Positions 1-45,809 are shown, counted from the first letter of the stretch. The stretch: DNA of 45,809 nt from a virus (IMGVR_UViG_3300032770_000036:1-45809); one strand, 5' to 3'. Numbers and translations are program-made. The notes: generated by a model not told the origin, from the sequence alone.

Positions 1-127
1 AAATTGGTCGGGTCGGTCGAGGCGGACGTCGGCGCGCCGACGACGGCGACGGGGATCGAGAAGCCCGAGCCGGTCCCGCCGACGCTGGCCGCCGCGACGC
101 CGAGCGTGTCCGTGGTCTTGTAGCCGG
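1..127. repeat. Terminal overlap, identical to 45683-45809
   Basis: Direct reading shows aaattggtcgggtcggtcgaggcgg...gtcttgtagccgg at both ends. It is 127 nt long and lies inside an ORF. Confidence 0.95.
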
Positions 128-728
128 TCCCGCGGGCTTCGAGCGCAACCGAGGAAATCGCGGTCCCGCCCGAGGCGATTTGGAACTGGCCCTTCGCGCC
201 CGAGCCCGAGCCGCCGGTGAAGGCGACGTTATCGTAGAACGCGCCCGTCGCCGCGACGGCGACCGACCAGCCCGAGCAGCCGGAGACGGAGCCGGTCAGC
301 GCGTCGTTGACGAGGTAGCCGGCGTTGTTCGCGCCGTGGCTGGTGATCGTGACGCTGATGACAGCGCCGCCGTAGGTGTTGACAGTCGCGACGGCGCCGG
401 TCGCGGCCGGCGTGGTGGCGTCGGTCAGGGCGACGGAGAAGCTGCCAGCCGCGCAGCCCGAGCCGCCGGTGATGGTCCCGAGCGACAGAACCGCCGTCCC
501 GGACGTGTAGCCGGAGCCGCCGGTGCGCGTCCCGAGGCTGCCGATCCCGCCGGTCGTGGTCGGAAAGACCGTGTTCGCCGCGCCGCCGAAGACGCCGGTG
601 AGCGCGATCGGGCCGGTATCCCACTGGATATTGTTGGAGGAGAAGAAGCCGGGCCTCGGCGGCGCGGCCTGCGCCCCAGCTAGGCTGAGCGCGAGGGCGC
701 TGACAGAGGCGATGAGGGCGCGCTTCAT
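1..728 (-). CDS. Signal-peptide tail-fibre/beta-helix-like protein, N-terminal part (gene crosses the contig junction and continues 45682 to 44389; 673 aa in total)
   Basis: My own reverse translation from ATG 728 gives MKRALIASVSALALSLAGAQA-APPRPGFF..., followed by GGxGY-type repeats. There is no stop before position 1. The frame joins exactly: 728+1294 = 2022 nt = 674 codons, matching track ORF 44389..45675. Confidence 0.7.
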   Translation of the reverse strand, partial: MKRALIASVSALALSLAGAQAAPPRPGFFSSNNIQWDTGPIALTGVFGGAANTVFPTTTGGIGSLGTRTGGSGYTSGTAVLSLGTITGGSGCAAGSFSVALTDATTPAATGAVATVNTYGGAVISVTITSHGANNAGYLVNDALTGSVSGCSGWSVAVAATGAFYDNVAFTGGSGSGAKGQFQIASGGTAISSVALEARGTGYKTTDTLGVAAASVGGTGSGFSIPVAVVGAPTSASTDPTN

Positions 729-773
729 GCGCCCCGACAGAGCGCGGGCGCGCGCGCCCCTCAACGCACTCCT

Positions 774-1115
774 TTAGTGCGCCGGGCCGCGCTTGAACGT
801 GGGCTGCTCGACCGCGGCGCCGCTCTTCTCAAGAGCCTGCTTCACCGCGCCGGCGGCGCCTATGAGCAGCATCAGGCCGGTGGCGCACTTGGGGTCGCCG
901 CAGCGGCACTGAACGCCGCCGGCCTCGATCGCGCCGACAAGGGCGGTCAGGGCGATGGTGGCCGCGTCCATCGCGTCGAGCTCAGCGAGCTTGCCCTCGG
1001 GGCCGCTGGCGATGATGCGGCGGATCGGAGCGCCGTCGGCGTCCGGGGCCTCGTCGAAGAGGCGGAACAGGAAGGAGGCTTCGTTGCGGGCGACGGGCTC
1101 GGTTTTCGCGCTCAT
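774..1115 (-). CDS. Hypothetical protein (113 aa)
   Basis: Track ORF with strong G/C third-position bias. It is the last small gene before the secreted-protein cassette. Confidence 0.55.
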   Translation of the reverse strand: MSAKTEPVARNEASFLFRLFDEAPDADGAPIRRIIASGPEGKLAELDAMDAATIALTALVGAIEAGGVQCRCGDPKCATGLMLLIGAAGAVKQALEKSGAAVEQPTFKRGPAH

Positions 1116-1233
1116 GGCCGCACCTTCGATCTGCCAGCGAGGCCGAGGGCCGCGCGCTTGCGGGCGTTGGCCGAGGCGATCTCCTTCGCGAGGTCGACCC
1201 GGAAGTTGCGCTTGCTCGATACTGACGAGCCTA

Positions 1234-1350
1234 TCACGTAATAGGCCCCGGCAGCGTCAGCACACAGACCATGACAGGCAAGTCCTGGCTGTAGAGAAAG
1301 TCCTCATCGATGATCGTAACCGAGATTTCTTCTGTTCTATTTTCGGACAT
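1234..1350 (-). CDS. Hypothetical small protein (38 aa, start at internal ATG 1350)
   Basis: Track ORF 1234..1440 trimmed to MSENRTEEISV.... The upstream part of that ORF overlaps a hairpin and a promoter-like region. Confidence 0.25.
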   Translation of the reverse strand: MSENRTEEISVTIIDEDFLYSQDLPVMVCVLTLPGPIT

Positions 1351-1373
1351 GGTTATGCAACCTATAAATAGCC

Positions 1374-1479: not shown

Positions 1480-1821
1480 TCAAGCACGCTTTTGCGTGTC
1501 GTCTCCGTCCCACTTTTCGAGCTGGTCGGCGTTGTAAATGTGGACTGAGCCGGGCTCGTGCAGGCTTTCGACGGCGACGCCGAACTCGGTGAGGCTTGTG
1601 CGGTAGAAGCCGACGACGCGGCCCCGCCAGGATGCGCCGCGCTTCGTCCGCACAAGGTCATGCGTGGCGAAGGGCCAACCGAGGAAGGTCGCCAGGTTGC
1701 AGGCCCGCATCGGGGGCGAGGCGAGGGCCTTGTCGATCTCGGAGAAGTCCTCGACCGCCTGAACCTCGGCCTTGCTCAATTGGGGTGCGCAGGCGCCGGA
1801 GGCGTCGCCGTCGAGAACCAT
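1480..1821 (-). CDS. Hypothetical protein (113 aa)
   Basis: Track ORF with high GC3. It abuts the upstream gene (1821/1822). Confidence 0.6.
   Translation of the reverse strand: MVLDGDASGACAPQLSKAEVQAVEDFSEIDKALASPPMRACNLATFLGWPFATHDLVRTKRGASWRGRVVGFYRTSLTEFGVAVESLHEPGSVHIYNADQLEKWDGDDTQKRA
1485..1498. promoter_or_regulatory. Operator palindrome CACGCTTTTGCGTG
   Basis: Perfect CACGC-N4-GCGTG inverted repeat. It overlaps the last codons of ORF 1480..1821. Confidence 0.55.
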
Positions 1822-2868: not shown

Positions 2869-3074
2869 CTGTCAGGGGACCGGGTGCGTGGGGGAAAAAT
2901 TGTGCGGGGGATGCTGGAGCGCGCGCGGCCCTCCCGATTTTCGAACCCCGGCGGCCCGCTGGTGCGATTGAGAGGGACCGGGTAGGGGGTCGCGATCGGC
3001 GTCGAGCTGAGCGCGTTCCACTCGGTCTGATCGAACGGATGCAAGCGAGATCAATGGCTTAGCCTCTGTTTCGC

Positions 3075-3458
3075 TTAATTGCCGGTTACGGTGCGGGCTG
3101 CGCTGCCGGCGCCAGCGCTGTCAGCGCGGCTGTCAGTGGCAGCGCGTGACAGAATGCTCGGGCGCGCGAGGCCTGGGCATGAAGTCCTCAGCCCCAGCAT
3201 CCCATTCGCTCGCTTGTCTGTGCGCTCGCCCTGGCGCTTGTCCGCTCGCCTGCCGCGTCGCTCGCCGTAGCGTCTGTCAGCCCGTCGCCTGACGTGCTCT
3301 TCCTCGCCTTCGATCTGTCGCTCGATCGTCGCGACGCTCACGCCGTCCCTCAGCATGCCGAGGATCCTGCCAGCGTTGAAGTCCAGCGCCGTGTATCTCA
3401 GCCGCTCGCGTAGGGTCTGCGGCAGCGCGTCGAATGCGGCCATCGTGGTCTTGCTCAT
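3075..3458 (-). CDS. Hypothetical protein with an Arg/Asp-rich repetitive C-terminal tail (127 aa)
   Basis: Track ORF. Its start overlaps the stop of the upstream gene by 4 nt. Confidence 0.5.
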   Translation of the reverse strand: MSKTTMAAFDALPQTLRERLRYTALDFNAGRILGMLRDGVSVATIERQIEGEEEHVRRRADRRYGERRGRRADKRQGERTDKRANGMLGLRTSCPGLARPSILSRAATDSRADSAGAGSAARTVTGN

Positions 3459-4024
3459 GGCGCTGCCTCTGTCACGGCTTCAGGCTCGGCGATCGGGCTG
3501 GCGTCGATGGTCACGGGCTGGGCGGCGGGCAGCGCTGGCGCAGCGTCAGCCTTGAGCCTGATGACGTAGCCGGGATTGATCGCGACGTTGTTCGTCGTCT
3601 GATTGACGGTGACGCTGACAGATGCGGGCCCGTCGCGCCCTTCGATCGCTTGGATCGCCTTGAGCCTTACCGTCTTGATGGCGGCTGAGCCGTCGCCCTC
3701 TTCGTCTCGAATGGCGATCGCGGCTTTGAGGTTGCGCACGAGCTCGCCGGTGCGCAGCGCGTCGAGGCAGCGGGCGAATTCTTCGCGGAAGGCGCGCTGC
3801 GATAGCTGGGCTTGGCAGCGCGACATGCGAAAGCCCATGTACTTGCTGGCCTGGCGCAGCGTCAGCGGCTCGAAAGCCGGGACAAGCTCGTCGCCGATCA
3901 TTTCGCTGTCGGGCAGGCCGAACGCCATGAGGCGGGCCAGTTCCCGCAAGTCGTCATCGTCCGGCGTGCCTTTCCATGTCGGGCGGCCTTCGGTCTGGCG
4001 CGTCTCGGCAGTCTGTTCGCTCAT
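3455..4024 (-). CDS. Hypothetical protein (189 aa; start at ATG 4024), first gene of the long minus-strand block
   Basis: Track ORF 3455..4114 trimmed to MSEQTAETRQ.... The helical mid-region has only a weak DNA-binding or small-terminase-like flavour. Confidence 0.5.
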   Translation of the reverse strand: MSEQTAETRQTEGRPTWKGTPDDDDLRELARLMAFGLPDSEMIGDELVPAFEPLTLRQASKYMGFRMSRCQAQLSQRAFREEFARCLDALRTGELVRNLKAAIAIRDEEGDGSAAIKTVRLKAIQAIEGRDGPASVSVTVNQTTNNVAINPGYVIRLKADAAPALPAAQPVTIDASPIAEPEAVTEAAP

Positions 4025-4252
4025 CGTGGGTGGGTGAGGCTCTGGGCGCACGCATGCGCGAGGCTTGGCTTGCGCGGGGAAATCCGCGCCCAAATCGCCT
4101 TTTCTCCAACGCACCAGCGCATCGCTTCGCGCGCGAGGCCGAATACGTGAGTTATATCAATAGCATGTATAGTGGCCCATCAAACAAGTCAGCTACCCTG
4201 ACCTATTGACGGTGCGTCGCGAAGCAGGGGTTTATGCGCGTATCTGCACACT

Positions 4253-4564
4253 ATGGCGCGGCCCAAACTCGACCCTTCGGCGTTCGATGAAACCGTCCGC
4301 GGCGCGGTCGCGCTGGCGGCCTGGGGACGGCTCACGGCGGGCGAAGTGGCGAGCGCGCTGGGCGTGCATCCCGAGACGATCCGACGCTGGTCACGCGCCT
4401 TCTACGGCCGTTCGCCGAGCGAAGCGCGACGAACCTACGTGCGCAAGCTGATCGCCCAGGCCGAAGGCGTCGGCAAACGTCCCTTGACCAAAGCGCAGAT
4501 GCGCCACGCGCAAGAGACGCGCGGAACCCCTGACAGCGAAAACCACAGCACAATCAACGGCTGA
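4253..4564 (+). CDS. HTH DNA-binding protein (103 aa)
   Basis: Track ORF. LTAGEVASALGVHPETIRRWSRAF reads as a helix-turn-helix. Confidence 0.6.
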   Translation: MARPKLDPSAFDETVRGAVALAAWGRLTAGEVASALGVHPETIRRWSRAFYGRSPSEARRTYVRKLIAQAEGVGKRPLTKAQMRHAQETRGTPDSENHSTING

Positions 4565-4607
4565 CAGACGTTTTGCACGCAAAAACGATAAATCTGTCAG
4601 TCGCCTA

Positions 4608-4636
4608 TTGCACGCTAAAGCGTGTTGTGCGATAAA
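4608..4636 (+). promoter_or_regulatory. Candidate sigma70-type promoter TTGCAC-17-GATAAA
   Basis: The -35 is at 4608-4613 and the -10 at 4631-4636. The operator at 4611-4624 overlaps the -35 and spacer. Confidence 0.35.
4611..4624. promoter_or_regulatory. Operator palindrome CACGCTAAAGCGTG
   Basis: Perfect CACGC-N4-GCGTG in the intergenic region. Confidence 0.55.
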
Positions 4637-4644
4637 TCGCATTA

Positions 4645-4658
4645 CACGCAAAAGCGTG
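4645..4658. promoter_or_regulatory. Operator palindrome CACGCAAAAGCGTG (extends to TTACACGC-AAAA-GCGTGTAA, 4642-4661)
   Basis: Perfect inverted repeat, 26 nt upstream of ATG 4684. Confidence 0.55.
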
Positions 4659-4683
4659 TAACGAACGTCTTGGAGAGAACGTC

Positions 4684-4788
4684 ATGCGCTTGTCACTCGA
4701 AATCCTCGCCTTCCTGGCGCTGCTTGCGGCTTACGCCTGCGTCGCCGCCTTCGCCGGCGTCTGCCTCGCCCTCTCGCTCGGAGCTTGA
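4684..4788 (+). CDS. 34-aa hydrophobic peptide
   Basis: My own translation gives MRLSLEILAFLALLAAYACVAAFAGVCLALSLGA. Its stop lies 6 nt before the next ATG. Confidence 0.3.
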   Translation: MRLSLEILAFLALLAAYACVAAFAGVCLALSLGA

Positions 4789-4793
4789 TCGTC

Positions 4794-6356
4794 ATGGCGA
4801 TCCTCAACGACCGCGCGCTGATCACGATCAGCGCCGAGAGCCGCGCCCTCATCCGCGCCGCGATCCGCAGAAGCCCGGGCTGGCGCGCCTACGCCCTTGA
4901 GCGCGACGTCGATCTGTCAGACCTGACAGCGCGCGACGCGATCTTCGATTGCTGCGACGCGCTCGGGATCGATATCGCCGCGACGATCGCCGCCGGCGCG
5001 CAAGACGAGCCGCCCCCGCCGCCGAAAAAGCGCGGCTCGAAAGCTGCGCCTGTCATCGCCCGCCGAACCGAATTCGTCTCGACGTGGAAAAACGGCGAGC
5101 TCCCCCGCGACATTCAGCCCTCGCAAATCATCGCCGTGCTCGGGTTCGATCCTGCCCTGCCCGAGCAAGACGACGATGACGACGTCAAGGTCACGATGAA
5201 ATGGGACTTCACGATCGACGGCGAGCCGGCCGCGATTTGGGATTACAAGGGCGCACGCTGGTCGACGTTCGGCTGCGAGCGCATCGCGCATCTGTTCGCG
5301 TCGCCCCAAGCCCCGCAAGCCCCTCCCGCACCCGCTGGGATCGCCTACCAGCGGCCGCCCCCGCCCACGGCCGCCCCCGCCGCTCCCGTCCCGCAGGAAG
5401 CCGCTACACAGCTTCTCAGCCTCATCGCAGGCCTAGCGCCCAAGGCGACGATGGATGCGGCCGCTGTCACGGCGATTGTCGGCCAATTTGTCGAGGAGCG
5501 CGTCGACCCCGCATTCCTGGAATGGGCGACCACGACAAAGGCGCTCATGGGGCGCGTCTCGGCGATCGAGAACCGCGAAGCGCCCGCCATCGTCGTCAAG
5601 CTGCAGCGAGGCGACACCATCGCTCAAATCGAGGGTCATCATCATCCCAAGTTCGCGACCCTGCTTCGCGCGCTCGGCTCGCGCCAGGCGGACGGCTACG
5701 CCCCGAACGTATGGATCGCCGGGCCCGCGGGGTCTGGCAAGACGCATGCGGCCAAGATGGCGGCGAAGGCGATCGGCGTCGCCTGGCATTACAACGGCGC
5801 CCTCAGCATGCCGCATGAGCTCTTGGGCTTCATCGATGCGGCCGGCAAATATCATCGCACGCCGTTCCGCGAGGCCTACGAACACGGCGGCGTGTACCTG
5901 TTTGACGAAGTCGACGGGAGCGACAACTCGGCGTTGCTCGCGCTCAACGCCGCGCTCGCCAACGGGACAGCGACGTTCCCCGACGGCCAGGTCAAGCGAC
6001 ACGTTGACAGCTATATCATTGGGACTGCGAACACTTGGGGCTTGGGCGCGACTGCGGAGTATGTTGGCAGATCCAAGATCGACGCGGCGTTCCTGTCACG
6101 CTTTCCTGTCAGGCTCGCATGGGACTATGATGAGCCGCTTGAGCGCAATATCTCGGGCAATGAGGCTTTCGCGAAGCGCGTTCAGCGCGCTCGCGCCATG
6201 GCGCGCTCGGCCGGCCTCAAAGTTCTCATCGATCCCCGCGCCTCGATCGCCGGCGCGGCGCTGATCGCCAACGGGGCGAGCGAGGCCGAGGCGGCCGAGC
6301 TCACCTATCTCGCCAATCTCACGGCCGAACAGCGCCGCATGGTCGGGGAGGGCTGA
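4794..6356 (+). CDS. AAA+ ATPase (AAA_5/MoxR/CobS-like) with an N-terminal extension and a Pro-rich linker
   Basis: Walker A is GPAGSGKT and Walker B is VYLFDEVD. An arginine-finger-like GRSKIDAAFLSRF follows, and the linker reads QAPQAPPAPAG...PPPPTAAPAAPVP. The start was moved from TTG 4785 to ATG 4794. Confidence 0.75.
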   Translation: MAILNDRALITISAESRALIRAAIRRSPGWRAYALERDVDLSDLTARDAIFDCCDALGIDIAATIAAGAQDEPPPPPKKRGSKAAPVIARRTEFVSTWKNGELPRDIQPSQIIAVLGFDPALPEQDDDDDVKVTMKWDFTIDGEPAAIWDYKGARWSTFGCERIAHLFASPQAPQAPPAPAGIAYQRPPPPTAAPAAPVPQEAATQLLSLIAGLAPKATMDAAAVTAIVGQFVEERVDPAFLEWATTTKALMGRVSAIENREAPAIVVKLQRGDTIAQIEGHHHPKFATLLRALGSRQADGYAPNVWIAGPAGSGKTHAAKMAAKAIGVAWHYNGALSMPHELLGFIDAAGKYHRTPFREAYEHGGVYLFDEVDGSDNSALLALNAALANGTATFPDGQVKRHVDSYIIGTANTWGLGATAEYVGRSKIDAAFLSRFPVRLAWDYDEPLERNISGNEAFAKRVQRARAMARSAGLKVLIDPRASIAGAALIANGASEAEAAELTYLANLTAEQRRMVGEG

Positions 6357-6359: not shown

Positions 6360-7226
6360 ATGCGCCGTCTCTCTCTCTCTAGCCCCGACATCATCCGGGC
6401 CAAGATCCATCGCCGCTCGACCGATCACTTCATGCTGTTCGACGGCATGGGCGAGCTCGCGGAACACTACGCGCAGATCCCTTGTCGCCGTCCGCGAGCC
6501 GATGCTTGGGTCGGTTATCTCAGCGCCGATGAGGCGCGCGAGCGCACACGCTACGGCGACCTGTCGCTTGTCGAGCCGAGCGACAAGCTTCTGGCGCGCA
6601 TGGAACAGGTCGAAATGCCGACGTCGCGCGCCAGGCTCGCCGATGACGTCTGCGGCGCGCTGCCGAATGTTCCCGCCTTCATCGCCGGCCATCCCCTCAA
6701 CATGCGCCGGCGCAAGCGCGAGGAAAGCGCCGCCGCGCCGCTCGCTATCATCGCCGACCTGACGACGTCGGCGGCCCTCAGCGCGGCGCAAATCGCGACG
6801 CGCGGCGCGGCTATTCTCGCCCTCGTGCGCGCCCTGTCAGCGCGGCGCCCGATCGAGCTATGGGTGTGCGCCATGCTCGACGCTGACAATTACCAGAATT
6901 GCGTCACGATCGCGGCGCGTATCGAAACGACGCCCCTGGATCTCGCCCGCGCGGCGTTCGCGCTGACGCACGCCGCGTTCCCCCGGCGCGTGCTTTACGA
7001 TCATGCGCACCACTTTCACGGCTACAAAGGCCAATGGCCTTACGGGACGGCCGCCCTCACGCGCGAGCAAATGGAGGCGGTTTGCGCGCCCGCCTTCTCG
7101 CACGTCAGCGAGACGCTATGCATCCCGGGCTTGCACCTGCAAGACCCGCTCCTCGCTGATCCCATCAAATGGGTCGAAGGCAAGATCGCCGAGCACGGCG
7201 CTGTCAATCTCGACGATGCGGCGTGA
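6360..7226 (+). CDS. Partner protein of the AAA+ ATPase (288 aa; possibly a degenerate vWA/CobT-like protein)
   Basis: Track ORF starting 4 nt after the ATPase stop. IIADLTTSAALS weakly resembles a MIDAS DxSxS motif. The function is not established. Confidence 0.5.
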   Translation: MRRLSLSSPDIIRAKIHRRSTDHFMLFDGMGELAEHYAQIPCRRPRADAWVGYLSADEARERTRYGDLSLVEPSDKLLARMEQVEMPTSRARLADDVCGALPNVPAFIAGHPLNMRRRKREESAAAPLAIIADLTTSAALSAAQIATRGAAILALVRALSARRPIELWVCAMLDADNYQNCVTIAARIETTPLDLARAAFALTHAAFPRRVLYDHAHHFHGYKGQWPYGTAALTREQMEAVCAPAFSHVSETLCIPGLHLQDPLLADPIKWVEGKIAEHGAVNLDDAA

Positions 7227-28484: not shown

Positions 28485-28486
28485 GC

Positions 28487-32240: not shown

Positions 32241-32266
32241 CGCTCTCTCCGCCCTCTGTCAGGAAC

Positions 32267-32773: not shown

Positions 32774-32809
32774 GTGCTTCGCCTCGTCGGATCAGCAGGG
32801 ATCAGGGGG

Positions 32810-33775: not shown

Positions 33776-33821
33776 CTGCTTGTCTCCTAGCCTTCCTTAA
33801 GCCGCCAACCCGGCTCGCTTC

Positions 33822-36545: not shown

Positions 36546-36736
36546 CAGGCTTTACCCTGCGCCGGCTGCTGCGGGAGCTGGATATAGCTAAGCTGCGTCC
36601 CATTTCCGAACATCGACCACAAATTCTCGGTCTGTTGGCCGAGGCTCTGCTGGATCTGCTGCGTCGCAAGCTGCTGGGCCTGCTGCTGCTGTTCGACCAG
36701 CGTCGGGTCCGGTTGCGCCTGGGGAATATCGACCAT
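36545..36736 (-). CDS. Gln-rich small protein (63 aa)
   Basis: Track ORF with high GC3 and a TGATG overlap with the portal start. Confidence 0.5.
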   Translation of the reverse strand: MVDIPQAQPDPTLVEQQQQAQQLATQQIQQSLGQQTENLWSMFGNGTQLSYIQLPQQPAQGKA

Positions 36737-37151: not shown

Positions 37152-38704
37152 TCCGCGACCCGGCGCAGCGAGCGCCGCCCCTTCCAGACGCTCATCGGGC
37201 GGCGCGGCGCTTCCGCGGTGAGGCCGACCATGACGCGCCCCTCGCCGATCCCAAGACACAGATATTGCAGGCAATCCGCGACATCGGAATAAGGATCCTT
37301 GACCGGCTCGGGGTCGCCAAGGGCTTTCTTGCGGACGTGGTAGCGCCCCGCCATCGCCGCCTTGAGCGTCGGGCAATTGTCTTTCGAGATCTGCAGGCGC
37401 GGCATGCCGTTGTGCATGCTCGCCAGAATGCTGTCGACCGCGGCTAGCCGTGTTGGCAGATTGTTGTTCTTGACCGGCGCGGGCTCGACCTTGACGTCGT
37501 GCGCGTCGAAGATCTCGTAGGAGGAGCGCTCGGTCGCCTGTCCCTTGTCGCGCCCCTTGGGGTCGCCCCAGATCTTATAGCGAAAGCCGGGGTAGTGCTT
37601 CTCCAGGAATTTCTTGAAGATCGGCGCGAAGATGACGGACGACGCCCCGTAGGCGCGCAGCTCGTATTGCACGAACAGCCGATTATTGATTTCCTGGCCG
37701 AAGATCGCGCAGGGCCGGCGGCCGAAATCCATCCCGATGACGACGTCGTGACCCTTGACGGGATAGAGTGTCGTCGCCGAGACGTGCGTGTCGATGTTGA
37801 AGCTGGGGTGAACGGGGTCGCCGTCGATGACGAGGGTGATCACGTTGCGCAGGCGGCTGTCGATCCAGGCCTTGGTCTTGCCGCGCGACTTCTCCTCGTA
37901 ATAGCCGGGCTTGAGCCATTTGAGGTTTTCGGCCTTCTCGTTGGTCCTGTAGCCGACGACCACGCCGCGGCTGTCACGGACCTCGTCGAGGGCGTGCGGC
38001 TGGATATGGTAGGCCCAATTCGAGGGCAGACCGAGCAGCTCACGCTCGGCCTCCGGCATGTTCTCGGGCGCCGGGACTTCGCCTGTCATGATCGGGAGCC
38101 AATGGTCCTCGGGCGGCGCGTTCATGTCAGCGATGACACCGTCCCAATTCGAGCCGCCCTCTTTCATCGAGGGGAAGCGGCCGGTCCTGCTTTCGGCCTC
38201 GTCGAAGATCGGCTTGTTGACGAATTCCAGCTCGTTGAACCACGCGCCGGTGTATTCGAGCGAGCGCAGTTTCTTGATGTCCTCAGGCTCGTCGAGGGCG
38301 AGAAAGATCACGTCGAGCTCGACGTCGCCGACCCTGACCTCGTGCGTCGGCGGCCGCTCCCAGCTCATGCGGCCGTAGAGATGCTCGGGGAACCAGTCGA
38401 GCCATGTCTTGATCGTGGTTTCGTGCAGCTCGGGATAGGTCGAGCGAACGACGATCCACTTCGAGCGACGCTTGCCTGTCAGTGTGCTTCTGCGCTGGCC
38501 GATCGCCTGGCGGTAGATCTTGATGCACGACGCCGACGACGTGCCCGATCCGATCGGGCCGCGAATGATGACGACGTGCTTGTCGTCCTCGATATAGGCT
38601 GACAGCACCGAGCCGTCGGGCTCGTAGATGAGCTGGCCGCTTTCCGAGACCTCAAGCCCGGGCGGTTTATCCCGCGGCTTTGCCGGGTCCGCCATCGGAT
38701 CCAT
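37148..38704 (-). CDS. terL: Terminase large subunit
   Basis: The P-loop reads IIRGPIGSGTSSA and the Walker B/coupling segment reads GAWFNELEF. Nuclease acidic residues lie in VVIGMDFG and ...SDVADCLQYL. The protein is 518 aa. Confidence 0.8.
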   Translation of the reverse strand: MDPMADPAKPRDKPPGLEVSESGQLIYEPDGSVLSAYIEDDKHVVIIRGPIGSGTSSASCIKIYRQAIGQRRSTLTGKRRSKWIVVRSTYPELHETTIKTWLDWFPEHLYGRMSWERPPTHEVRVGDVELDVIFLALDEPEDIKKLRSLEYTGAWFNELEFVNKPIFDEAESRTGRFPSMKEGGSNWDGVIADMNAPPEDHWLPIMTGEVPAPENMPEAERELLGLPSNWAYHIQPHALDEVRDSRGVVVGYRTNEKAENLKWLKPGYYEEKSRGKTKAWIDSRLRNVITLVIDGDPVHPSFNIDTHVSATTLYPVKGHDVVIGMDFGRRPCAIFGQEINNRLFVQYELRAYGASSVIFAPIFKKFLEKHYPGFRYKIWGDPKGRDKGQATERSSYEIFDAHDVKVEPAPVKNNNLPTRLAAVDSILASMHNGMPRLQISKDNCPTLKAAMAGRYHVRKKALGDPEPVKDPYSDVADCLQYLCLGIGEGRVMVGLTAEAPRRPMSVWKGRRSLRRVAE

Positions 38705-38966
38705 GCCCGGAGTTGTCGTGCATCCAGCGGAATTTCAGCACTTCCATGCCGGACGTGATCTCGTGGAACCAGCCGTCGGTCGCGGCCCAGCACGTTCCTA
38801 TTGCGCCGGGCCCCTCGACCGTGACAGCCGCGAGCGACCTGATCTTGCCATCCTTCGCGAGGGCGAGCAGATCCTCAAGCAGCATAACGAGCTGCGGCAT
38901 GGCTCTTGTCTTCGTCCGTTCCGCGAAACCCGAATTGTGGTGCGGCAGGTCGACGACGTTCGTCAT
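38667..38966 (-). CDS. Hypothetical protein (99 aa) immediately upstream of terL
   Basis: Track ORF overlapping terL by 38 nt. A small-terminase role is possible from position only. Confidence 0.45.
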   Translation of the reverse strand: MTNVVDLPHHNSGFAERTKTRAMPQLVMLLEDLLALAKDGKIRSLAAVTVEGPGAIGTCWAATDGWFHEITSGMEVLKFRWMHDNSGHGSDGGPGKAAG

Positions 38967-39331
38967 CAGCGCCCTCGATACGGGCCAGGACCGCCGCCGG
39001 CGGGAAAGGCGTCGGGGATACCGCCCTTGATGATCCCGGAGGCGTAGGCGCCATAGACGATCGGGGCGAGCTTCTCCAACACCTTGCTCAGCTCAAGCGC
39101 GGTTCCGGGCTCGATACCGAAGTCGACGAGGATCTGCTGCACGCCGTTCGCGAAGGCGACCGCGTCGTTGAAGTCGAGCTTTCGATCGTGGATTTCGCGG
39201 ACCAGCACGACGGCGGCGCCGGCGGCGGTCGAGATGTCATCTATGACCACGGCGTCGCTCGCCTTCGCCTTGCCGCCGAGCGGCCCCGCCAGGAAGCGGA
39301 GCGCCGCGGCAAGAACAGATTTCCAGTTCAC
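38966..39331 (-). CDS. Hypothetical protein (121 aa)
   Basis: Track ORF. Confidence 0.5.
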   Translation of the reverse strand: MNWKSVLAAALRFLAGPLGGKAKASDAVVIDDISTAAGAAVVLVREIHDRKLDFNDAVAFANGVQQILVDFGIEPGTALELSKVLEKLAPIVYGAYASGIIKGGIPDAFPAGGGPGPYRGR

Positions 39332-39708
39332 TGCGCGCCGTTCTGGATCTTGTTGACCTGGGCGATCGCGGCCCCGATCTTGGCGATCAGCGTCGCCGAA
39401 TTAACCGTGGCGGGGTTCTCGCAGATCGTGTTGATGACAGCCTGCGCGCTCTGCACGTCCTTGCTCTGCTGTGCTGTCAGCTTGGAGATCCCGAGCACGA
39501 GATTGACGTCAGCCTGCAGGAACGGGACGAAGCCGCAGGCGAGCGCAGTGCTCATGCCCGCCTCGCTCTCGATGTTCTGCAGGTCCGATTGGACCTTGGC
39601 GAGCGAGCCCTGCAGGTCGGCGCTGCAGGCGTCGGGCGCCGTGGCGTCGAAGATGAAGGGCAGCGCGACAACCGTGAGGATCAGGTAAGAGCGGAATGTG
39701 AGCTGCAC
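39328..39708 (-). CDS. Signal-anchored periplasmic protein (126 aa; possibly spanin-like)
   Basis: The N-terminus reads MQLTFRSYLILTVVALPFIFDATA, followed by a helical Gln-rich body with four Cys. It lies within the lysis cluster. Confidence 0.45.
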   Translation of the reverse strand: MQLTFRSYLILTVVALPFIFDATAPDACSADLQGSLAKVQSDLQNIESEAGMSTALACGFVPFLQADVNLVLGISKLTAQQSKDVQSAQAVINTICENPATVNSATLIAKIGAAIAQVNKIQNGAQ

Positions 39709-39720
39709 GGGAAACTCCTG

Positions 39721-40128
39721 TCAGTTCGGCTTCGGGGGAGGCGCGACGGCGGTCATGCTGGCTTGCAGGCGGCCGAACGACGCGACGAGCTTGTGAGCGA
39801 CGGCGACGGGGTCGAGGCCGACGGCGTGAAGCTCCTCGGGGATCGCGCCGGTGATCTTGGTCACGAGGTCGGCGATCATCGGAGAATGCACGTCGATCGA
39901 CTTCGTCGCGAGATTGTCGGTCGCCTTGGCGATTTCCTGCGCCGCCTTGTCGTCGATGTATTTCTCGACCTTGGCGAGGAGCGCCTGATCGACGGCGATC
40001 CCGGTGTAGCGCTTGACCTCGGCCACGAGGATACCGCCGACGCCGGTCACGATGGCGCCGAAGATGGCGACGAAATAGGGCTGCGCGGCGGCGAGCATCG
40101 AGCCGAGGGTGATGGTCGTGTCGGACAC
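39721..40128 (-). CDS. Holin-like membrane protein (135 aa)
   Basis: There is one N-terminal transmembrane helix (AAQPYFVAIFGAIVTGVGGILVA). The gene lies directly downstream of the endolysin gene. Confidence 0.4.
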   Translation of the reverse strand: MSDTTITLGSMLAAAQPYFVAIFGAIVTGVGGILVAEVKRYTGIAVDQALLAKVEKYIDDKAAQEIAKATDNLATKSIDVHSPMIADLVTKITGAIPEELHAVGLDPVAVAHKLVASFGRLQASMTAVAPPPKPN

Positions 40129-40140
40129 AGGGTTCTCCTG

Positions 40141-40629
40141 TCAGGCGACGAGGGGCTGTTCGGGTGACAGATCGTAGAGGTCGAGCGCGTTGTCCTCGAT
40201 CTCGTGAATGATGACCGTCGCGTAGTTCGGCGCGGTCGCGTAGTGCTTCGCCATCGCCGCCACGAAGTCGCGCCAGTCGGTCCCCGCCTCGCCGCCGGCG
40301 GCGCGCGCATCGGCGTAGATCGGGCTGTCAGCGAGCAGGCGGGCGTGGGCGAGGAAGCAGGCGGTCGCGGAGGGATATCTCGCGAAGGGTTGGCTCACCG
40401 AAACCATGCGGCCGCCGATGAACTCGTGCGTGCGCGCCATGACGAAGGCCTGGCCGCGCACCGCCTTGATCCCGAAATAATTGTTCGACCCCGGCGGGAT
40501 TTCGCGCCCGTAGGCGCTCTCGATCGCCCATTGCGCGAGGGTCACGCAGGCGGGAACGGCGGGATAGGCGCGCTGTGCGTCCTGCGCCGCCTGGATGATC
40601 TCGGGCGGAAAGAGGGAGAGGTTCGACAT
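40141..40629 (-). CDS. Endolysin, glucosaminidase (GH73/FlgJ-type) domain
   Basis: TLAQWAIESAYGREIPPGSNNYFGIKA...ARTHEF...FARYPS follows the pattern AQ.A.ESGWG....NN.FGIK...T.E....F..Y. The start was moved to ATG 40629. Confidence 0.8.
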   Translation of the reverse strand: MSNLSLFPPEIIQAAQDAQRAYPAVPACVTLAQWAIESAYGREIPPGSNNYFGIKAVRGQAFVMARTHEFIGGRMVSVSQPFARYPSATACFLAHARLLADSPIYADARAAGGEAGTDWRDFVAAMAKHYATAPNYATVIIHEIEDNALDLYDLSPEQPLVA

Positions 40630-40690
40630 CGGCGGCCTCAGTTCGCGGCGAGCGATGCGCCGCGGGCGCGCGCGGGCCAACGCACTCAGG

Positions 40691-42748
40691 TCAGTAATAT
40701 CCTTTCGACTGCAGCCATGACCGGACGCACTTGGTGATGCGGGAAGCGAACACGCGGTTGCCTAGCGCGTTGTTATGCGAGGCGGCGTCATAGGTGAAGT
40801 CGGTGTTTCCGGTCCCGTTCGGCGAGGCAATGGATCCCGTTCCGGTCTCGAATGGCCCATCGGCCGCGTTCGTCCAGGGGCAAAATACCGCCATCGGGTC
40901 GTTCATGGCCGCAAGCGCGGCTTGCGTCGCCTGCTCGGTGGCGACGCAGTTGTTCGTGCAGGATGTTCCCCCGAAGTTGTGAGCGTAAGCGCCAAGGACG
41001 ATGATCGGTATATTTGCTGTCTGAGGATGAGCGCGGAGGGTCTGTATGTAGGTCGTTTGAGCCGCCGCGATCTGCGAAGCGCTTAAGCTCGGGTAATCAT
41101 TGGTCCCGTTGCTTATGAGTAGAATATCCGGCCCAGCTCCGTTCTTCACGTTGAAGACGTCACTAATGCGACTGAGCGCTGAGCCTGACGTGCAGTCGGC
41201 GGCATTATATCCGCACCCCCCGATTGCCGTATTCACGAGGCCGATTATTCCTAGTTCGTCGGCTACGATGCGCGGATATGCCCACGCGCCGGAAAGCACG
41301 CCTCCCCCAAACGGGTAGCTATCGCCCATCGTCGCCATCGTAAGCACCGGAGGGCCGCCCGGATAATAGATGTCATCGCCCACGGCTATGTCGACGCCGC
41401 CAAAATGGCCAGAACCATCGTTCTCGACAATAATATCGCGAGCGGATCGGCCGCCTACACTGGAAAAGTCAAGTATTGTGTATTCCCAACCCGTGGTAAC
41501 AAGAGGGCCGTAATGATTAGGAGAAACATACTGGCAATGATCATGGTTAATCCCGCAGACAGCAAATCTCCACGCGCCACCAGCGCTCAGGGTAGATTGA
41601 TCGTAAGCCCTGAATACCATTACGGGCGCGGTCGTGACGAACTCGAACCGCCCAAAGCTGTTGGACGCGACCCCGGCGACCGTAGGCCCTCCGAAGCCCA
41701 CGTAGGATGTCCCTGAGCTATTGAGCGCGGTCGCGCCCTCCAGGCTGAAGTATGTCAGAAGGTTGCCCGCGCCGCCGTTCCAAAGCACCGAATGCGGCCC
41801 GCTATTTGAGTTGATAGCGGTCGGGAGATTGCGCAAATAGTTCCACGTGCAGGTGTTGTCGGTCTGGCCGCTTCCGGTCCCGCTTGGGCCGCTGCCGCTG
41901 GCCGCCGATGTGCAGGCGCCGGTGTTCTGGTAGAAATATCCAAGGGCGGTCGCCCCGGATCCCGTGAACGTGACCGCAACCGTCCCCGCGGGGTAGGCCG
42001 TATTTATGGCCCATCTGCTCGCGACCGTAACCGTAGGGGCGCCACCTGTCGGCGATTTCTGCACGGAATTCCAAAGACAGGTTCCGTCTGTAATCATTGA
42101 CCCCGCGGCCGACGGGCCTGAACCGGTTCCGGCGGAAGTACATGGCGTCGTATTTGAAGCGCCTCCCTGCATCTCCTCAAAGTATAAGCCGTTGTCAGAG
42201 ACAATCTCGCCGGGATAATAGGACGTGCTTTGCGCCCAGGCGGGAATGCCCATCGGCTGGTTGACTTGAAGGTTGTCCGACTGCGCGGCCCGCGCAAAGC
42301 GCGCTATGATGGCGAGTGTGTTGGGCGCGGCTCCGTCGACCTCTGAGGCCAGCAAGCCGAGCGTGGCCGGTATTTGAAGGCCGATCCCGGAGCCCGAGGT
42401 CGAGGTTTGGCTGCAATTCGTGGCCCCTCTCAGGACCATCCCCGTCGTCTTCCCTCCGGAAAGCAACGTCGCCGCCGTCGCGACGCCGCTCGCCGCAGTC
42501 ACGCTGATTACAGGGGGAATTGAGAAGGTTACGCCGTTGCATCCCAGAACGACCGTGTCCCCGGTCGCGTAACCCGTCATGGTTCCTGTCGGGGCGCCAA
42601 GACCATTCGGCGACAGGGCGAATTGGACGCCGGCGAAGTCGCTGACCTCTCGGCCTAGACCGCTTTGCTGAGCAAGAGCGGGGGGCGAGAACGCCAGCAG
42701 GGCACTGAGCGTGGCCGCTGCGAATGGGCTTCTGCGAGTGTATTTCAT
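40691..42748 (-). CDS. Signal-peptide protein (685 aa) with a C-terminal SGNH/GDSL hydrolase domain
   Basis: The start was moved to ATG 42748, giving MKYTRRSPFAAATLSALLAFSPPALA-QQ. The GDS block is TMGDSYPFGGG and the GxND block is LISNGTNDY. The C-terminus reads ...YDAASHNNALGN. Confidence 0.7.
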   Translation of the reverse strand: MKYTRRSPFAAATLSALLAFSPPALAQQSGLGREVSDFAGVQFALSPNGLGAPTGTMTGYATGDTVVLGCNGVTFSIPPVISVTAASGVATAATLLSGGKTTGMVLRGATNCSQTSTSGSGIGLQIPATLGLLASEVDGAAPNTLAIIARFARAAQSDNLQVNQPMGIPAWAQSTSYYPGEIVSDNGLYFEEMQGGASNTTPCTSAGTGSGPSAAGSMITDGTCLWNSVQKSPTGGAPTVTVASRWAINTAYPAGTVAVTFTGSGATALGYFYQNTGACTSAASGSGPSGTGSGQTDNTCTWNYLRNLPTAINSNSGPHSVLWNGGAGNLLTYFSLEGATALNSSGTSYVGFGGPTVAGVASNSFGRFEFVTTAPVMVFRAYDQSTLSAGGAWRFAVCGINHDHCQYVSPNHYGPLVTTGWEYTILDFSSVGGRSARDIIVENDGSGHFGGVDIAVGDDIYYPGGPPVLTMATMGDSYPFGGGVLSGAWAYPRIVADELGIIGLVNTAIGGCGYNAADCTSGSALSRISDVFNVKNGAGPDILLISNGTNDYPSLSASQIAAAQTTYIQTLRAHPQTANIPIIVLGAYAHNFGGTSCTNNCVATEQATQAALAAMNDPMAVFCPWTNAADGPFETGTGSIASPNGTGNTDFTYDAASHNNALGNRVFASRITKCVRSWLQSKGYY

Positions 42749-42764
42749 TTGTCCCCCCAGCGCA

Positions 42765-43757
42765 TCAGAAGCGTTCCACGATGATCGCGTAGCCCGCGCC
42801 GCCCGCAGCGCCAGCGCCGGCCGTGCCGCCATTCTGCGCCGAGCCGCCGCCGCCGCCCCCGCCGGCCGGCAGGCCCCCGGCGCCGCCCGCGAACGCCACG
42901 GTGGTCGACGAAGCGCCGCCGCCGCCGCCGCCGCCGACGAAGAGGTCAAGGGGGTAGGTCGACAGCGACGCCGCGACGCCGGCGCCGCCCGCGCCGGCGC
43001 CGGCCGTCCCGTTGGTGTTGGGGAAGGCCCCGTTGCCGCCGATCGCGCCATTGGCCGTCGCATTGCCGGACGTGATCCCGCCGCCGGAGCCGCCGGCGCC
43101 CGCGCCTGCCAGGCCAGGGCCGCCATTGCTCGCGCCGCCGGTCGCCGTGCCGCCGCCGCCGGCGCCCCCATAGCCCGGCGCGACCCCGACATTGCCGACC
43201 GCCCCGGAGCCGCCGTTGCTCTGCCCGGTTCCGTTGACGCCGCCCGTGCCGTTGGTCGAGCTGCCGCCAGCGGCGTAGCCCGTGTTGCCGCCCTGGCCGC
43301 CGCCGGACGCGCCGCCGAGCTGGCCGCCGGCGCCGCCGCCGCCGCCGAAGCCCGTCAGCAGCGAGCCAAACGTCGTGGCGCCGCCGGCGCCGCCGTTGCC
43401 GCCCGCCGTCGTGCTGACGGTGGCGGCCGCGCCCGCCGTTCCCGCCGCGCCGATCGTGACGGTCTGCGAGCTCCCAATCTCCGCCGCCGTGAACCTCGCG
43501 CAGCGATGGCCGCCGCCGCCCCCTCCGCCGCCGCCGGAAACGACCGTGGAGGCCGCCTGGAGCGCGCCGCCGCCGCCTCCGCCGCCCGCGCCGTAGACGC
43601 AGACCTCAGCCTCGGTGAGGCCCGGCGAGGGGGTATAGGTTCCGTTGGCGGAAATGGTCACGATGTTGATGCGCCGCGGCGCATAGCCGCCGCCGGCGAG
43701 CGCTGGGGAGGCGGCGAGCAGGGCGGCGAGGGAGATGAGGGCGCGGCGCGTCATCAT
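42765..43757 (-). CDS. Signal-peptide glycine-rich protein (330 aa)
   Basis: The sequence starts MMTRRALISLAALLAASPALA-GGG. It continues VCVYGAGGGGGGG...GGGGGGGGG...VTIGAAG...TTFG...GGGGG... and ends GYAIIVERF, the layout of phage and bacterial glycine-rich domain proteins. Confidence 0.65.
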   Translation of the reverse strand: MMTRRALISLAALLAASPALAGGGYAPRRINIVTISANGTYTPSPGLTEAEVCVYGAGGGGGGGALQAASTVVSGGGGGGGGGHRCARFTAAEIGSSQTVTIGAAGTAGAAATVSTTAGGNGGAGGATTFGSLLTGFGGGGGAGGQLGGASGGGQGGNTGYAAGGSSTNGTGGVNGTGQSNGGSGAVGNVGVAPGYGGAGGGGTATGGASNGGPGLAGAGAGGSGGGITSGNATANGAIGGNGAFPNTNGTAGAGAGGAGVAASLSTYPLDLFVGGGGGGGASSTTVAFAGGAGGLPAGGGGGGGSAQNGGTAGAGAAGGAGYAIIVERF

Positions 43758-44164
43758 TGAGCCCCCACGGTGAGCAAGCCGCCCGCGGCCGAGCCGATCG
43801 CATTGACGCTGTCGGTCGGCAGGGCGACGTCGAAGAACCGGAAACCGCCGGGTTGCAGCGCGATCTCGCCGGCCGCGCAGACGCCGGAGGAGATCGTCGC
43901 CGTTCCTCCGAATTTGATGCACAGCGTCGTCGAGCCGACGTTTTCGAGATAGAGAAACTGCGAGATCGACGTGACAGGCGTCCCCAGGATTGAACCGGAG
44001 CCGATGACGACCTGGTTCGACGCGCCGATCGTCGCGCCCTGGAAAGAGCCGGCGGCAAGGGGGATCGCCGAGGCGCGCGCGTTCTCGTAAGCGAAGAGGC
44101 CAGCGACGAGGCTGGCCGCGCTGACGGCGACGGCTAGGAGGGTCTTGGGCTTGGCGCGGCGCAT
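43754..44164 (-). CDS. Signal-peptide beta-rich small protein (136 aa)
   Basis: The N-terminus reads MRRAKPKTLLAVAVSAASLVAGLFAYENARA-SA. It has an ATGA overlap with the next gene. Confidence 0.55.
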   Translation of the reverse strand: MRRAKPKTLLAVAVSAASLVAGLFAYENARASAIPLAAGSFQGATIGASNQVVIGSGSILGTPVTSISQFLYLENVGSTTLCIKFGGTATISSGVCAAGEIALQPGGFRFFDVALPTDSVNAIGSAAGGLLTVGAQ

Positions 44165-44176
44165 TTGCGAAACTCC

Positions 44177-44386
44177 CTATTCCGGCGACTGATCTTGAAG
44201 CTCGTCCTGCGCCTGGTCGGCGTCGCGCAGCGTTTCGGCGTCGACCTCAACCTTCACAGCGCAGGCGACGGCCTTGTTTGTTTCCTCATGCCAGCGCGCC
44301 TCGATTTCTCGCTGGATGACCTGCGCGGGATCGGCGCGGGCCGCGGTGATAGCCGCGACGAAGGCGAAGAGGATGAGCAGCTTCAT
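44177..44386 (-). CDS. Signal-peptide acidic small protein (69 aa)
   Basis: Track ORF trimmed to MKLLILFAFVAAITAARA-DPAQ.... The ATG lies 2 nt after the upstream stop. Confidence 0.5.
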   Translation of the reverse strand: MKLLILFAFVAAITAARADPAQVIQREIEARWHEETNKAVACAVKVEVDAETLRDADQAQDELQDQSPE

Positions 44387-44388
44387 GA

Positions 44389-45682
44389 TCAGCACGCGGG
44401 GATGTAGCGGACCGTGCCGGAGGCGTCGGTGAAGGTGAGCCATTCCTGCACGGTCGAGTGAATGCCGCTCGGGCCGAGCGTGCCGACGCAGGCGGTGGTC
44501 GAGCCGTTGGCGGTCCAGCCGCCAGTCGTGCCGACCTTCAGGACTTCCGAGCCCGTGCCGAAGACGATCGGGGCGTTCGCCGTGTTGAAGAGCTGCAGCG
44601 CGTTCGCGCCCTGGCCGCCGGAGAATGCGCCGCCGTTGAGGGCGACGCCGGCCTGGTTGATCGCATTCGAGTTGCCGAAGTAGAGCGTCTCTTTGGCGGC
44701 CGTCCCGGTCGAGGAATTGCGCAGCGTCGCCGAGCTGACGCCGTTCGTATTGTTGAAGGTCGCGAACTGATCGGTCGAGTTGATCGGAGCGTTGATGTCG
44801 ATCCCTTCAAACCCGCTGTTCGTCGAGGCGAACTGCGCGACCGGCGAATTGCCGCTGTCGATCGTCGTGTTGCCGGCGCCCGAGACGTGCATGCCGTTCT
44901 GCGTCGTCGCGGTCCCGGAAATCGTGATCGTGCCGCCGACGAAGTTGAAGGAGCCGTCGATGTAGCCGTTGCCCTGCGGGCCGCGCAGCGTGAAGCCGGA
45001 GACGGCGGAATAATTGTAGAGGTCGACGCCGGCGTAGATCGAGCCGCAATTGCCCGCCGCGGCGTGGCCATTCGTGTTGGTCAGCGAGGCGTGAACCCAG
45101 CAGCCGACGAGCTCGCCCGTCGTCTTGATCGAGGGGAAGCCGTCGTAGGAGCCGTCGGCGAAGCCCATGTCGAAGCCGGGATTGGCGGCCAGCGACTTGT
45201 TGATGGAATAGCCGAGCGTATTGATCAGCGAGGCGTTCTCGTACCCCGGCGACTGCACGATTTGCTCGCCGATGACGACGTCGACCGTCGCGCCGGGCCG
45301 GATGTCGAGATCGTTCTCCTGACCGATGCACTGGTGCCAGTAGAGCGCGCCGGCGAGCAGGCGACAGATCGGGTTAAGGGAGAAGGCGTCGCCGCGCCCG
45401 TTGCCCGCGCCCGCCGTCCCGGTCGGCCCGGGGACCGAGATCTGCGTGACAGGCGAGAGGGACGTGTAGTCGCGCCACGTCGTGTCGATCGGCGCGACGT
45501 TGAGGTTGAGCACGAACTGGCCGGTGAGGCGGCTCCCCTGGCCGCCGCCGGTGTTGAGGTTCCAATTGAAGGCGACGACGCCGTTCGGCGAGGACGTGTC
45601 CTGCACCGTGTCGGCGGTATACGTGAAGTTGTTGTAGATAGTTTCAACGGGGTCGGCGCTAACGCCCGACGCCACGCTGGTG
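44389..45682 (-). CDS. C-terminal part of the junction-spanning signal-peptide beta-helix-like protein (see 1..728)
   Basis: The track ORF 44389..45675 has no stop upstream through 45809. The GTG at 45675 is an artefact of the window edge; the true start is ATG 728 across the junction. Confidence 0.7.
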
Positions 45683-45809
45683 AAATTGGTCGGGTCGGTC
45701 GAGGCGGACGTCGGCGCGCCGACGACGGCGACGGGGATCGAGAAGCCCGAGCCGGTCCCGCCGACGCTGGCCGCCGCGACGCCGAGCGTGTCCGTGGTCT
45801 TGTAGCCGG
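45683..45809. repeat. Terminal overlap, identical to 1-127
   Basis: Same 127-nt string as the window start. Confidence 0.95.

Follow-up and report, generated by a model that had tools for sequence, protein, structure and literature searches.

To our knowledge, hyper-abundant short DNA words such as HIP1, Chi and the uptake sequences are properties of cellular genomes that phages at most copy. Phage genomes usually carry fewer short palindromes than expected. Chi, which is over-represented in the host itself, depends on orientation, its co-oriented copies being concentrated between ori and cos. Here we describe a short word, CTGWCAG (CTGTCAG or CTGACAG) with its core TGWCA, that is strongly enriched in a viral contig of 45,809 nucleotides (IMGVR_UViG_3300032770_000036), the whole of which is referred to as the window. 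The closest analogue of this word is HIP1 (GCGATCGC), together with the alternate highly iterated palindromes (HIP words) of cyanobacteria. HIP words are short GC-containing palindromes, 15- to 300-fold over-represented at about one per kb, which occur in every reading frame and between genes, use non-preferred codons and have no settled function (PMC4390886, PMC5861425). CTGWCAG resembles them in being enriched by an order of magnitude over both composition and codon-aware nulls, and in occurring in all frames and in non-coding DNA with non-preferred codons. HIP1, however, belongs to bacterial chromosomes, has cognate orphan methyltransferases and keeps its positions between genomes, whereas CTGWCAG is phage-owned, no methyltransferase was found in the window, its sites turn over fast and its minimal unit is an asymmetric 5- to 6-mer. 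Like Chi in some lambdoid phages, CTGWCAG is a short word present at very high numbers, with number selected over exact position. Unlike Chi, it is not enriched in host DNA (replicon pSymA), its sites lack an orientation bias, and the phage has recombination genes of its own (for a PD-(D/E)XK nuclease and an AAA_24 ATPase). The pattern also recalls restriction-site avoidance, of which GANTC is the classical form here, as a genome-wide, frame-independent, DNA-level bias on a short palindrome, but its sign is opposite, with enrichment to near saturation.

The window contains exactly 57 CTGWCAG sites (33 CTGTCAG and 24 CTGACAG); an earlier note on this DNA had counted about 57. Dinucleotide shuffles predict 3.68 ± 2.04 sites (maximum 13 in 100 shuffles), corresponding to an approximately 15-fold excess, and an order-3 Markov model predicts 7.2, with the word showing the top z-score among all 7-mers of the window. 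Synonymous codons were also shuffled within genes, a procedure that preserves proteins and codon usage gene by gene and leaves sites outside called genes fixed. These shuffles gave 14.7 ± 2.0 sites in total, about 12 of them the fixed non-genic sites, and the 45 genic sites observed compare with about 4 expected (3.9), an approximately 11-fold excess. Whole-codon shuffles likewise failed to reproduce the enrichment. Both comparisons by which the roughly ten-fold over-representation claimed in the earlier note could fail were thus run: the count does not lie near expectation, and codon-preserving shuffles do not reproduce the excess. Coding DNA has 1.19 sites per kb and the remaining DNA, with 12 sites outside called genes, has 1.49; the figure for the whole window is 1.24 per kb.

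The genic sites read 23 CTGTCAG and 22 CTGACAG on the coding strand. By frame, 26 are CTG-WCA-G, 16 are xCT-GWC-AGx and three fall in the third frame. The use of rare A-ending codons, as claimed earlier, holds for the 26 of 45 genic sites written CTG-TCA-G or CTG-ACA-G: CTG supplies 39% of the Leu codons in the window, but TCA supplies 3.8% of the Ser and ACA 6.4% of the Thr codons. Tripeptides of the form Leu-(Ser/Thr)-(G-initial residue) are written CTG-WCA-G in 26 of 57 cases, where codon usage predicts about 2%, and an xTG codon precedes 42 of all 79 TCA and ACA codons. Over all frames of the main genome, with the motif-poor module described below left out, 44 of 111 synonymous opportunities for CTGWCAG are used (approximately 40%), compared with about 2% expected from codon usage. 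The shuffles and the rare-codon use support the earlier proposal of selection on the DNA word rather than on the protein. The individual examples quoted with that proposal, at 4914-4929, 17021-17035 and 6106 and at the gene junctions at 39718 and 40138, are all correct, and the two junction copies do supply, on the minus strand, a stop codon together with a Shine-Dalgarno sequence.

The palindromic heptamer, taken as the unit in the earlier note, is enriched, but the minimal unit is the core TGWCA, or C-TGWCA. Under the synonymous-shuffle null, the strongest word of any tested length is the hexamer CTGTCA/TGACAG, with 81 genic copies compared with 9.4 expected (z = 23). The same null gives 54 observed and 9.3 expected for CTGACA/TGTCAG, 101 and 31 for TGWCA, 16 and 2.2 for CTGTCAC, and 13 and 1.6 for CTGTCAT. 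The whole window holds 130 TGWCA cores, which carry a 5' C on both strands in 57 cases (the heptamer), on one strand in 58 and on neither in 15. TGWCA is TGTCA read on either strand, so that the palindromic heptamer represents an asymmetric core flanked on both sides. The two half-flanked forms are unequal in the window (46 CTGTCAH vs 12 CTGACAH), and the seventh base after CTGTCA follows the order G > C > T. Both half-flanked forms are also present in relatives, where the favoured seventh base varies, for example CTGWCAC in the relative L145. No conservation of the flanks was found beyond ±2 nt, so that the sites do not represent copies of a longer repeat. A tandem or dispersed repeat, such as a repetitive extragenic palindrome (REP), a miniature inverted-repeat transposable element (MITE) or an iteron array, is ruled out by the unconserved flanks and the Poisson-like spacing.

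Sinorhizobium phage phiM5 (44 kb, host S. meliloti) is the only cultured phage in the GenBank collection with a homologue (Sm_phiM5_63) of the DUF7192 protein, which the window encodes beside an AAA+ ATPase. The phiM5 genome contains 423 TGWCA compared with 60 expected, 84 CTGWCAG compared with 4.8 (17-fold) and no GANTC compared with 197. The corresponding values in 50 kb of S. meliloti pSymA are 52 vs 64, 2 vs 4.8 and 76 vs 285. Phage 16-3, which infects the same host, has three CTGWCAG compared with 4.7 expected and 89 GANTC compared with 202 in its first 45 kb. Across pSymA and five other alphaproteobacterial replicons, the observed-to-expected ratio (O/E) of TGWCA is 0.41-0.86. Since phiM5 is enriched while pSymA and phage 16-3 stay at baseline, the word belongs to certain phages and not to their hosts, nor to every phage that infects a given host.

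Within the capsid family of the window, enrichment is seen in the window itself, L149 (capsid 90% identical), L151 and L145 (82%), L152 (79%) and the distant L003 (63%). L147/L177 (74%), a Pleomorphomonas prophage (66%), some 40 more relatives by portal or capsid and the Bradyrhizobium element NZ_CP094518 are not enriched; the unenriched members include L148, L154-L172 and L170. A metagenome scan with the capsid protein returned five loci, none of them enriched. Enrichment is thus polyphyletic within the capsid family and does not follow the phage phylogeny. The enriched relatives share with the window an early pair of genes encoding the AAA_5 ATPase and the DUF7192 protein. A non-enriched sister genome is without the pair at the syntenic position, and the AAA+/DUF7192 module is not present in NZ_CP094518, a Bradyrhizobium phage-plasmid.

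A DUF7192 protein alignment was used as a probe and retrieved 30 viral contigs that have no other gene in common with the window; with L209 and L210 these make 32 loci. Single-protein scans of viral contigs with the ATPase or DUF7192 had found nothing. TGWCA reaches an O/E of at least 1.8 in 18 of the 32 DUF7192 loci, compared with one of 43 control loci (Fisher p = 7e-8). O/E values are bimodally distributed and range from 2.2 to 6.0 in the 18 enriched loci, about half of which have CTGTCA or CTGACA as the top hexamer. Among 32 palindromic pentamer families, TGWCA alone is consistently raised. The enriched loci span 47-66% GC, and their restriction-avoidance signatures differ, with GANTC absent in some and CCWGG in others; the differing depleted words therefore imply different host restriction regimes. 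The link between enrichment and the DUF7192 module is real but not tight.

Other words were also recorded in these genomes. The DUF7192 loci L182-L184, L206-L208, L192, L181 and L202 show no TGWCA excess or carry additional over-represented words, including AAAAAAA (75 vs 10 expected), ATATATA (12 vs 0.2), CCGTGCC(A) (31 vs 5), GAACCGA (17 vs 1.8) and GTTTACA (17 vs 2.1). CCWGG is essentially missing in DUF7192 groups b and c (O/E 0.01-0.05). In the portal relatives L008/L009, AGTCTCA, AGACTGA and CTCAGTC each occur at about 5- to 11-fold over expectation, which suggests a dispersed longer repeat such as GACTGAGACT. The idea that each lineage has its own palindrome, raised by an excess of GAGCTC, CTGCAG and GTCGAC in relatives, was rejected, as these words arise from preferred codons paired in frame 0. 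When viral contigs were searched for heptamer triples spanning at most 30 bp, the matches listed were for the most part tandem repeats or clusters arising by chance in contigs of low GC, and were uninformative.

Site turnover was followed in codon alignments of seven structural genes from relatives at 55-86% nucleotide identity. Most site positions are lineage-specific and each genome has its own gains, so that sites are mostly unshared even at 70-80% nucleotide identity. The window and L149 have about six of 15 sites in common, numbers too few for a test of site conservation. Positions turn over, and it is therefore density, not position, that is selected.

All CTGWCAG sites and nearly all TGWCA cores of the window lie in one domain of about 40 kb (Table 1). 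Their spacing is near-Poisson (coefficient of variation approximately 1.0), although pairs no more than 40 bp apart are two to three times commoner than expected. The asymmetric sites are interspersed, 25 on the plus and 33 on the minus strand, and the hexamers number 82 plus and 90 minus, showing no orientation bias. The site-rich stretch 2869-4600 has eight heptamers in 1.8 kb, including one adjacent pair. It ends in a heptamer triple just upstream of the AAA+/DUF7192 genes, and the TGA stop of a small helix-turn-helix (HTH) open reading frame (ORF) falls within the second heptamer of this triple. A comparable triple, CTGACAG(CG), is present in phiM5 (L217) at 276, 288 and 298, spaced by 12 and 10 bp. 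It lies inside a 357-bp direct terminal repeat, so that the triple occupies both 276-304 and 43924-43952, and its last copy contains the stop of ORF 01.1. Both phages thus have a heptamer triple upstream of the AAA+/DUF7192 module.

Two further features were noted in this region. The heptamer pair at 4914-4929 forms CTGT-N8-ACAG, a match to the gammaproteobacterial LexA-box consensus that is probably a coincidence of two words 9 bp apart. Upstream of the ATPase operon, the intergenic DNA at 4595-4665 holds two near-identical inverted repeats, GCACGCTAAAGCGTGT and ACACGCAAAAGCGTGT, of the form ACACGC-N4-GCGTGT, which probably serve as operators. Over the whole window, ACACGCT/AGCGTGT is found 17 times where 4.1 are expected.

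The remaining approximately 6 kb form a motif-poor module without any heptamer, in which TGWCA occurs seven times compared with 4.3 expected and one of 14 synonymous opportunities is used. The chance probability of a heptamer gap of this length is P = 0.015. GANTC is also missing from the module (0 vs 26 expected), which may have been acquired in a recent exchange with a phage in which GANTC is avoided but TGWCA does not build up.

GANTC, the CcrM/HinfI word, occurs once in the window compared with 239.7 ± 12.9 expected. It is also absent from L176 (0 vs 60) and L203 (0 vs 83), while its O/E is about 0.25-0.45 in the hosts and phage 16-3. This depletion goes far beyond the known alphaproteobacterial under-representation and is independent of TGWCA enrichment: L147, L177, L148 and L178 are strongly depleted in GANTC but not enriched in TGWCA, whereas L190, L198, L209 and L210 are enriched in TGWCA yet keep GANTC.

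We put at about even the chance that CTGWCAG is the strongest form of a dispersed, phage-owned recognition word in double-stranded DNA, whose density is kept by DNA-level selection and whose reader protein is encoded or recruited by the phage. The core TGTCA/TGACA, with a 5' C preferred on one or both strands, is written wherever the proteins tolerate it, in core frames 1 and 2, on both strands and at gene junctions. A phage-encoded or recruited protein would bind or recognise it along the whole phage chromosome, and might act in self-marking or protection, or else in ATP-dependent handling of the genome as it enters or replicates. The reader may be functionally tied to the AAA+/DUF7192 pair. 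A broader version of this proposal appears to us possible, although rather doubtful: unrelated phages would use a "genome dialect" for self/non-self recognition or chromosome handling, in which their DNA is saturated with the private word TGWCA/CTGWCAG, the host CcrM word GANTC is erased in the strongest cases (the window clade, phiM5 and L203), and a factor tied to the first-expressed AAA+/DUF7192 genes reads the word. Such a dialect might spare phage DNA while host DNA is attacked, or allow the genome to be gripped at many points during entry, condensation or replication.

Several products of the window bear on the identity of such a reader. The ATPase, a CobS/MoxR-like AAA+ protein, is 65% identical to the product of phiM5 gene 64 and weakly matches a CobS structure. 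The model of the DUF7192 protein (predicted local distance difference test score, pLDDT, 84) has von Willebrand factor A (VWA) domains as its best Foldseek matches, none significant, and the protein is a probable VWA-like partner of the ATPase. The pair may be only a marker of the relevant phages, or the N-terminal region of the ATPase may itself be the reader. The small HTH protein, excisionase/MerR/BldC-like by sequence, is a candidate DNA binder. A homologue was detected in L176 alone, the protein is not kept throughout the enriched lineages, and no similarity was detected between this protein, whose gene carries the heptamer triple of the window, and phiM5 ORF 01.1, which carries that of phiM5. 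A ParB-like virion protein, present in L152, was rejected as the reader, as its domain was not found in the window.

Several observations weigh against a phage-owned recognition word read by a factor linked to this pair. The host control covers phiM5, and for the window phage itself a host-specific cause is still conceivable. Fourteen of the 32 DUF7192 loci are unenriched, two of which nest inside the otherwise enriched ATPase clade. The 32 loci collapse to roughly 10 lineages, about five enriched and five not; with so few independent lineages, the association is weaker than the Fisher p suggests and could reflect hitch-hiking. The tally of module presence covers genomes other than L003 and L152, which are partial contigs, and no third gene common to the enriched groups was found within ±10 kb of the DUF7192 loci. 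By structural prediction, the pair resembles a chaperone of the MoxR/CobS type and its VWA-like partner, and not a DNA reader (Foldseek E > 0.2). The 6-kb module fares well without the word. The earlier suggestion of a regulatory, nucleoid or packaging protein site survives as the best class of explanation, although no reader protein was identified among the window products.

Alternatively, the word could be the target of a methyltransferase or some other enzyme that modifies bases, encoded by the host or by a phage gene that escaped recognition, with sites accumulating because their modified form is useful, for example in repair strand choice, as proposed for HIP1, or in protection. A palindrome of 5-7 bp with a central W has a form typical of type II enzymes, heptamers at about one per kb match the density that Elhai discussed for HIP words (PMC4390886), and the total purge of GANTC shows that site-specific DNA enzymes shape these phages. 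This explanation is nevertheless unlikely. None of the plausibly sized ORFs of the window was found to contain a recognisable DNA methyltransferase domain, so that the methyltransferase target suggested in the earlier note has no support inside the phage, while a host enzyme is conceivable. A search of the accessible literature returned no mention of the CTGWCAG/TGWCA word in a prokaryotic or phage context, as a methyltransferase motif or otherwise, the host replicon pSymA is unenriched, and the asymmetry of the half-flanked sites would be odd for a symmetric enzyme.

The sites could also be half-sites of the host PhoB, or of another OmpR-family winged-helix regulator, serving to sense or titrate it. 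The specificity of PhoB is conserved across Proteobacteria, which would fit enrichment at 47-66% GC without enrichment of host genomes. The Pho box (CTGTCAT-N4-CTGTCAT) is built of the half-site CTGTCAT, with the S. meliloti version TGWCAM-N4-CYKTCAK (PMC2573895), and the top hexamer of the window, CTGTCA, is the core of this half-site. In contrast to a Pho box, however, the sites show no excess of direct repeats at the 11-bp same-orientation spacing required by PhoB dimers (the pooled count at this distance is 11, not above its neighbours, and is zero in the window), favour G and not T as the seventh base, are mostly intragenic, occur in either orientation and do not precede promoters. We regard a PhoB-type half-site as improbable.

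It is very unlikely that the phage inherited a host-abundant word by amelioration, in the manner of HIP1, Chi or uptake sequences. As Bobay, Touchon and Rocha reportedly showed in 2013 (Bobay et al. 2013), lambdoid phages can over-represent Chi. The density, frame-independence and non-preferred codons of CTGWCAG do recall HIP1 (PMC5861425), and the module that was probably acquired recently is without the word. The host-wide word that the earlier note had considered is contradicted in the phiM5 case, in which the phage is 17-fold enriched and pSymA, phage 16-3 and the five further replicons are at baseline. Moreover, one core is enriched in phages of widely different GC content and restriction-avoidance signature, sister phages under the same GANTC-avoidance regime are unenriched, and the asymmetric sites lack the orientation bias of a Chi-like word.

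A mutational or repair by-product, by deamination of methylated CCGWCGG/CGWCG to CTGWCAG/TGWCA or by a biased repair of the very-short-patch type, has as little in its favour. The orthologous positions in relatives are usually CGWCA, TGWCG or CCGWC, so that most gains look like CpG-to-TpG or CpG-to-CpA changes. The one-step intermediates are, however, unenriched (CGWCA/TGWCG 1.0-1.2x, CTGWCGG 0.8x), and it is therefore the complete DNA word that selection favours; the presumed source words are undepleted (CGWCG 1.39x, CCGWCGG 1.44x). The view of the word as a graveyard of deaminated CCGWCGG, suggested by the ortholog forms, was dropped on the unenriched intermediates. Saturation of 40% of the synonymous opportunities is far above known repair biases, and CG forms are in any case the nearest neighbours of any TG..CA word in a GC-rich genome.

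It is barely credible that the enrichment merely follows from the usage of codons, dipeptides or codon pairs, or from the GANTC purge (for example, Asp-Ser forced to GAC-AGC): GACAGC is indeed raised (59 vs 20), as expected if GANTC avoidance forbids GAC-TCN, but neither synonymous nor whole-codon shuffles reproduce the enrichment, the sites fall into three frame classes, occupy both strands and are also intergenic, their rare element (an xCT/xxT or WCA codon) is not explained by GANTC avoidance, the two traits are uncoupled in the eight genomes listed above, and the GAGCTC, CTGCAG and GTCGAC excesses are frame-0 artefacts, unlike CTGWCAG.

The window carries an exact terminal duplication of 127 bp (1-127 = 45683-45809), which is a k-mer overlap left by the assembler. 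The sequence is a circular contig that is 45,682 bp long once the overlap is discounted, and its G+C content is 66.5%. It represents a temperate phage of podovirus type (Table 1). Two further metagenome contigs of about 45.7-45.8 kb have identical capsid genes, and no DNA-level match to sequenced phages was found in the phage collection by megablast of 20000-40000 or by blastn of 40500-45700. The relatives include a Pleomorphomonas prophage and the Bradyrhizobium phage-plasmid NZ_CP094518, and the family therefore infects Alphaproteobacteria. Within the late operon, a 113-aa ORF at 1480-1821 (minus strand) matches the R67-type dihydrofolate reductases (Pfam DHFR_2, E = 3.5e-15), a type of enzyme that is itself resistant to trimethoprim.

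Table 1. Positions of CTGWCAG sites, site clusters and selected genes in the window.
Feature	Position	Strand	Remarks
Domain with all 57 CTGWCAG	700-40331		Nearly all 130 TGWCA cores also here
CTGWCAG starts, first part	700, 2358, 2374, 2869, 3118, 3130, 3274, 3615, 4530, 4561, 4594, 4914, 4923, 6106, 6834, 7428, 7943, 8482, 8632, 10151		
CTGWCAG starts, middle part	13067, 14367, 14931, 16532, 17021, 17029, 18937, 19480, 20643, 21545, 22394, 23422, 23575, 23614, 24354, 24966, 25077, 25513, 26546, 27494		
CTGWCAG starts, last part	29259, 29274, 29897, 31862, 32160, 32256, 34721, 35227, 36481, 36857, 36962, 38476, 38599, 39474, 39718, 40138, 40325		
Motif-poor module	40332-45809, on through junction to 699		GDSL-esterase and glycine-rich fibre-like late genes
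Adjacent pair CTGTCAGCGCGGCTGTCAG	3118-3136		12 bp start to start
Heptamer triple (4530, 4561, 4594)	4530-4600		31 and 33 bp apart; at or after the 3' end of the HTH ORF
Adjacent pair CTGTCAGACCTGACAG	4914-4929	+	Leu-Ser-Asp-Leu-Thr; inside ATPase gene
Adjacent pair CTGTCAGGCTGTCAG	17021-17035	+	Inside integrase-like gene
Gene-junction copy CTGACAGGAG	39718-39724	-	TGA stop plus next Shine-Dalgarno
Gene-junction copy CTGACAGGAG	40138-40144	-	Stop plus Shine-Dalgarno
Sole GANTC site	30732-30736		
Minus-strand gene	728 -> 44389	-	About 715 aa; crosses circular junction
Small helix-turn-helix protein	4253-4564	+	Excisionase/MerR/BldC-like
CobS/MoxR-like AAA+ ATPase	4785-6356	+	Pfam AAA_5, phrog_249
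DUF7192 protein	6360-7226	+	"VDLTxS" motif, metal ion-dependent adhesion site (MIDAS)-like
S24 repressor-like gene	11282-11986		
Integrase-like gene	16169-17362		
Major capsid protein	32810-33775		Pfam GP7
Portal	34833-36545		
Large terminase	37148-38704		

The word stands at about 40% of its coding-compatible maximum in the phage, is not enriched in host DNA and recurs across base compositions. This points to a portable activity, encoded or recruited by phages, with conserved sequence specificity; we know of no such portable, sequence-specific phage activity described to date. The question of what reads HIP1, and why its density is kept, is unsolved after 30 years. With the cultured phage phiM5 on the genetically tractable S. 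meliloti, what reads the CTGWCAG word and why its density is selected become directly testable. Phage-private words of this kind will mislead k-mer-based host prediction, and the TGWCA/CTGWCAG word could mark this class of phages.

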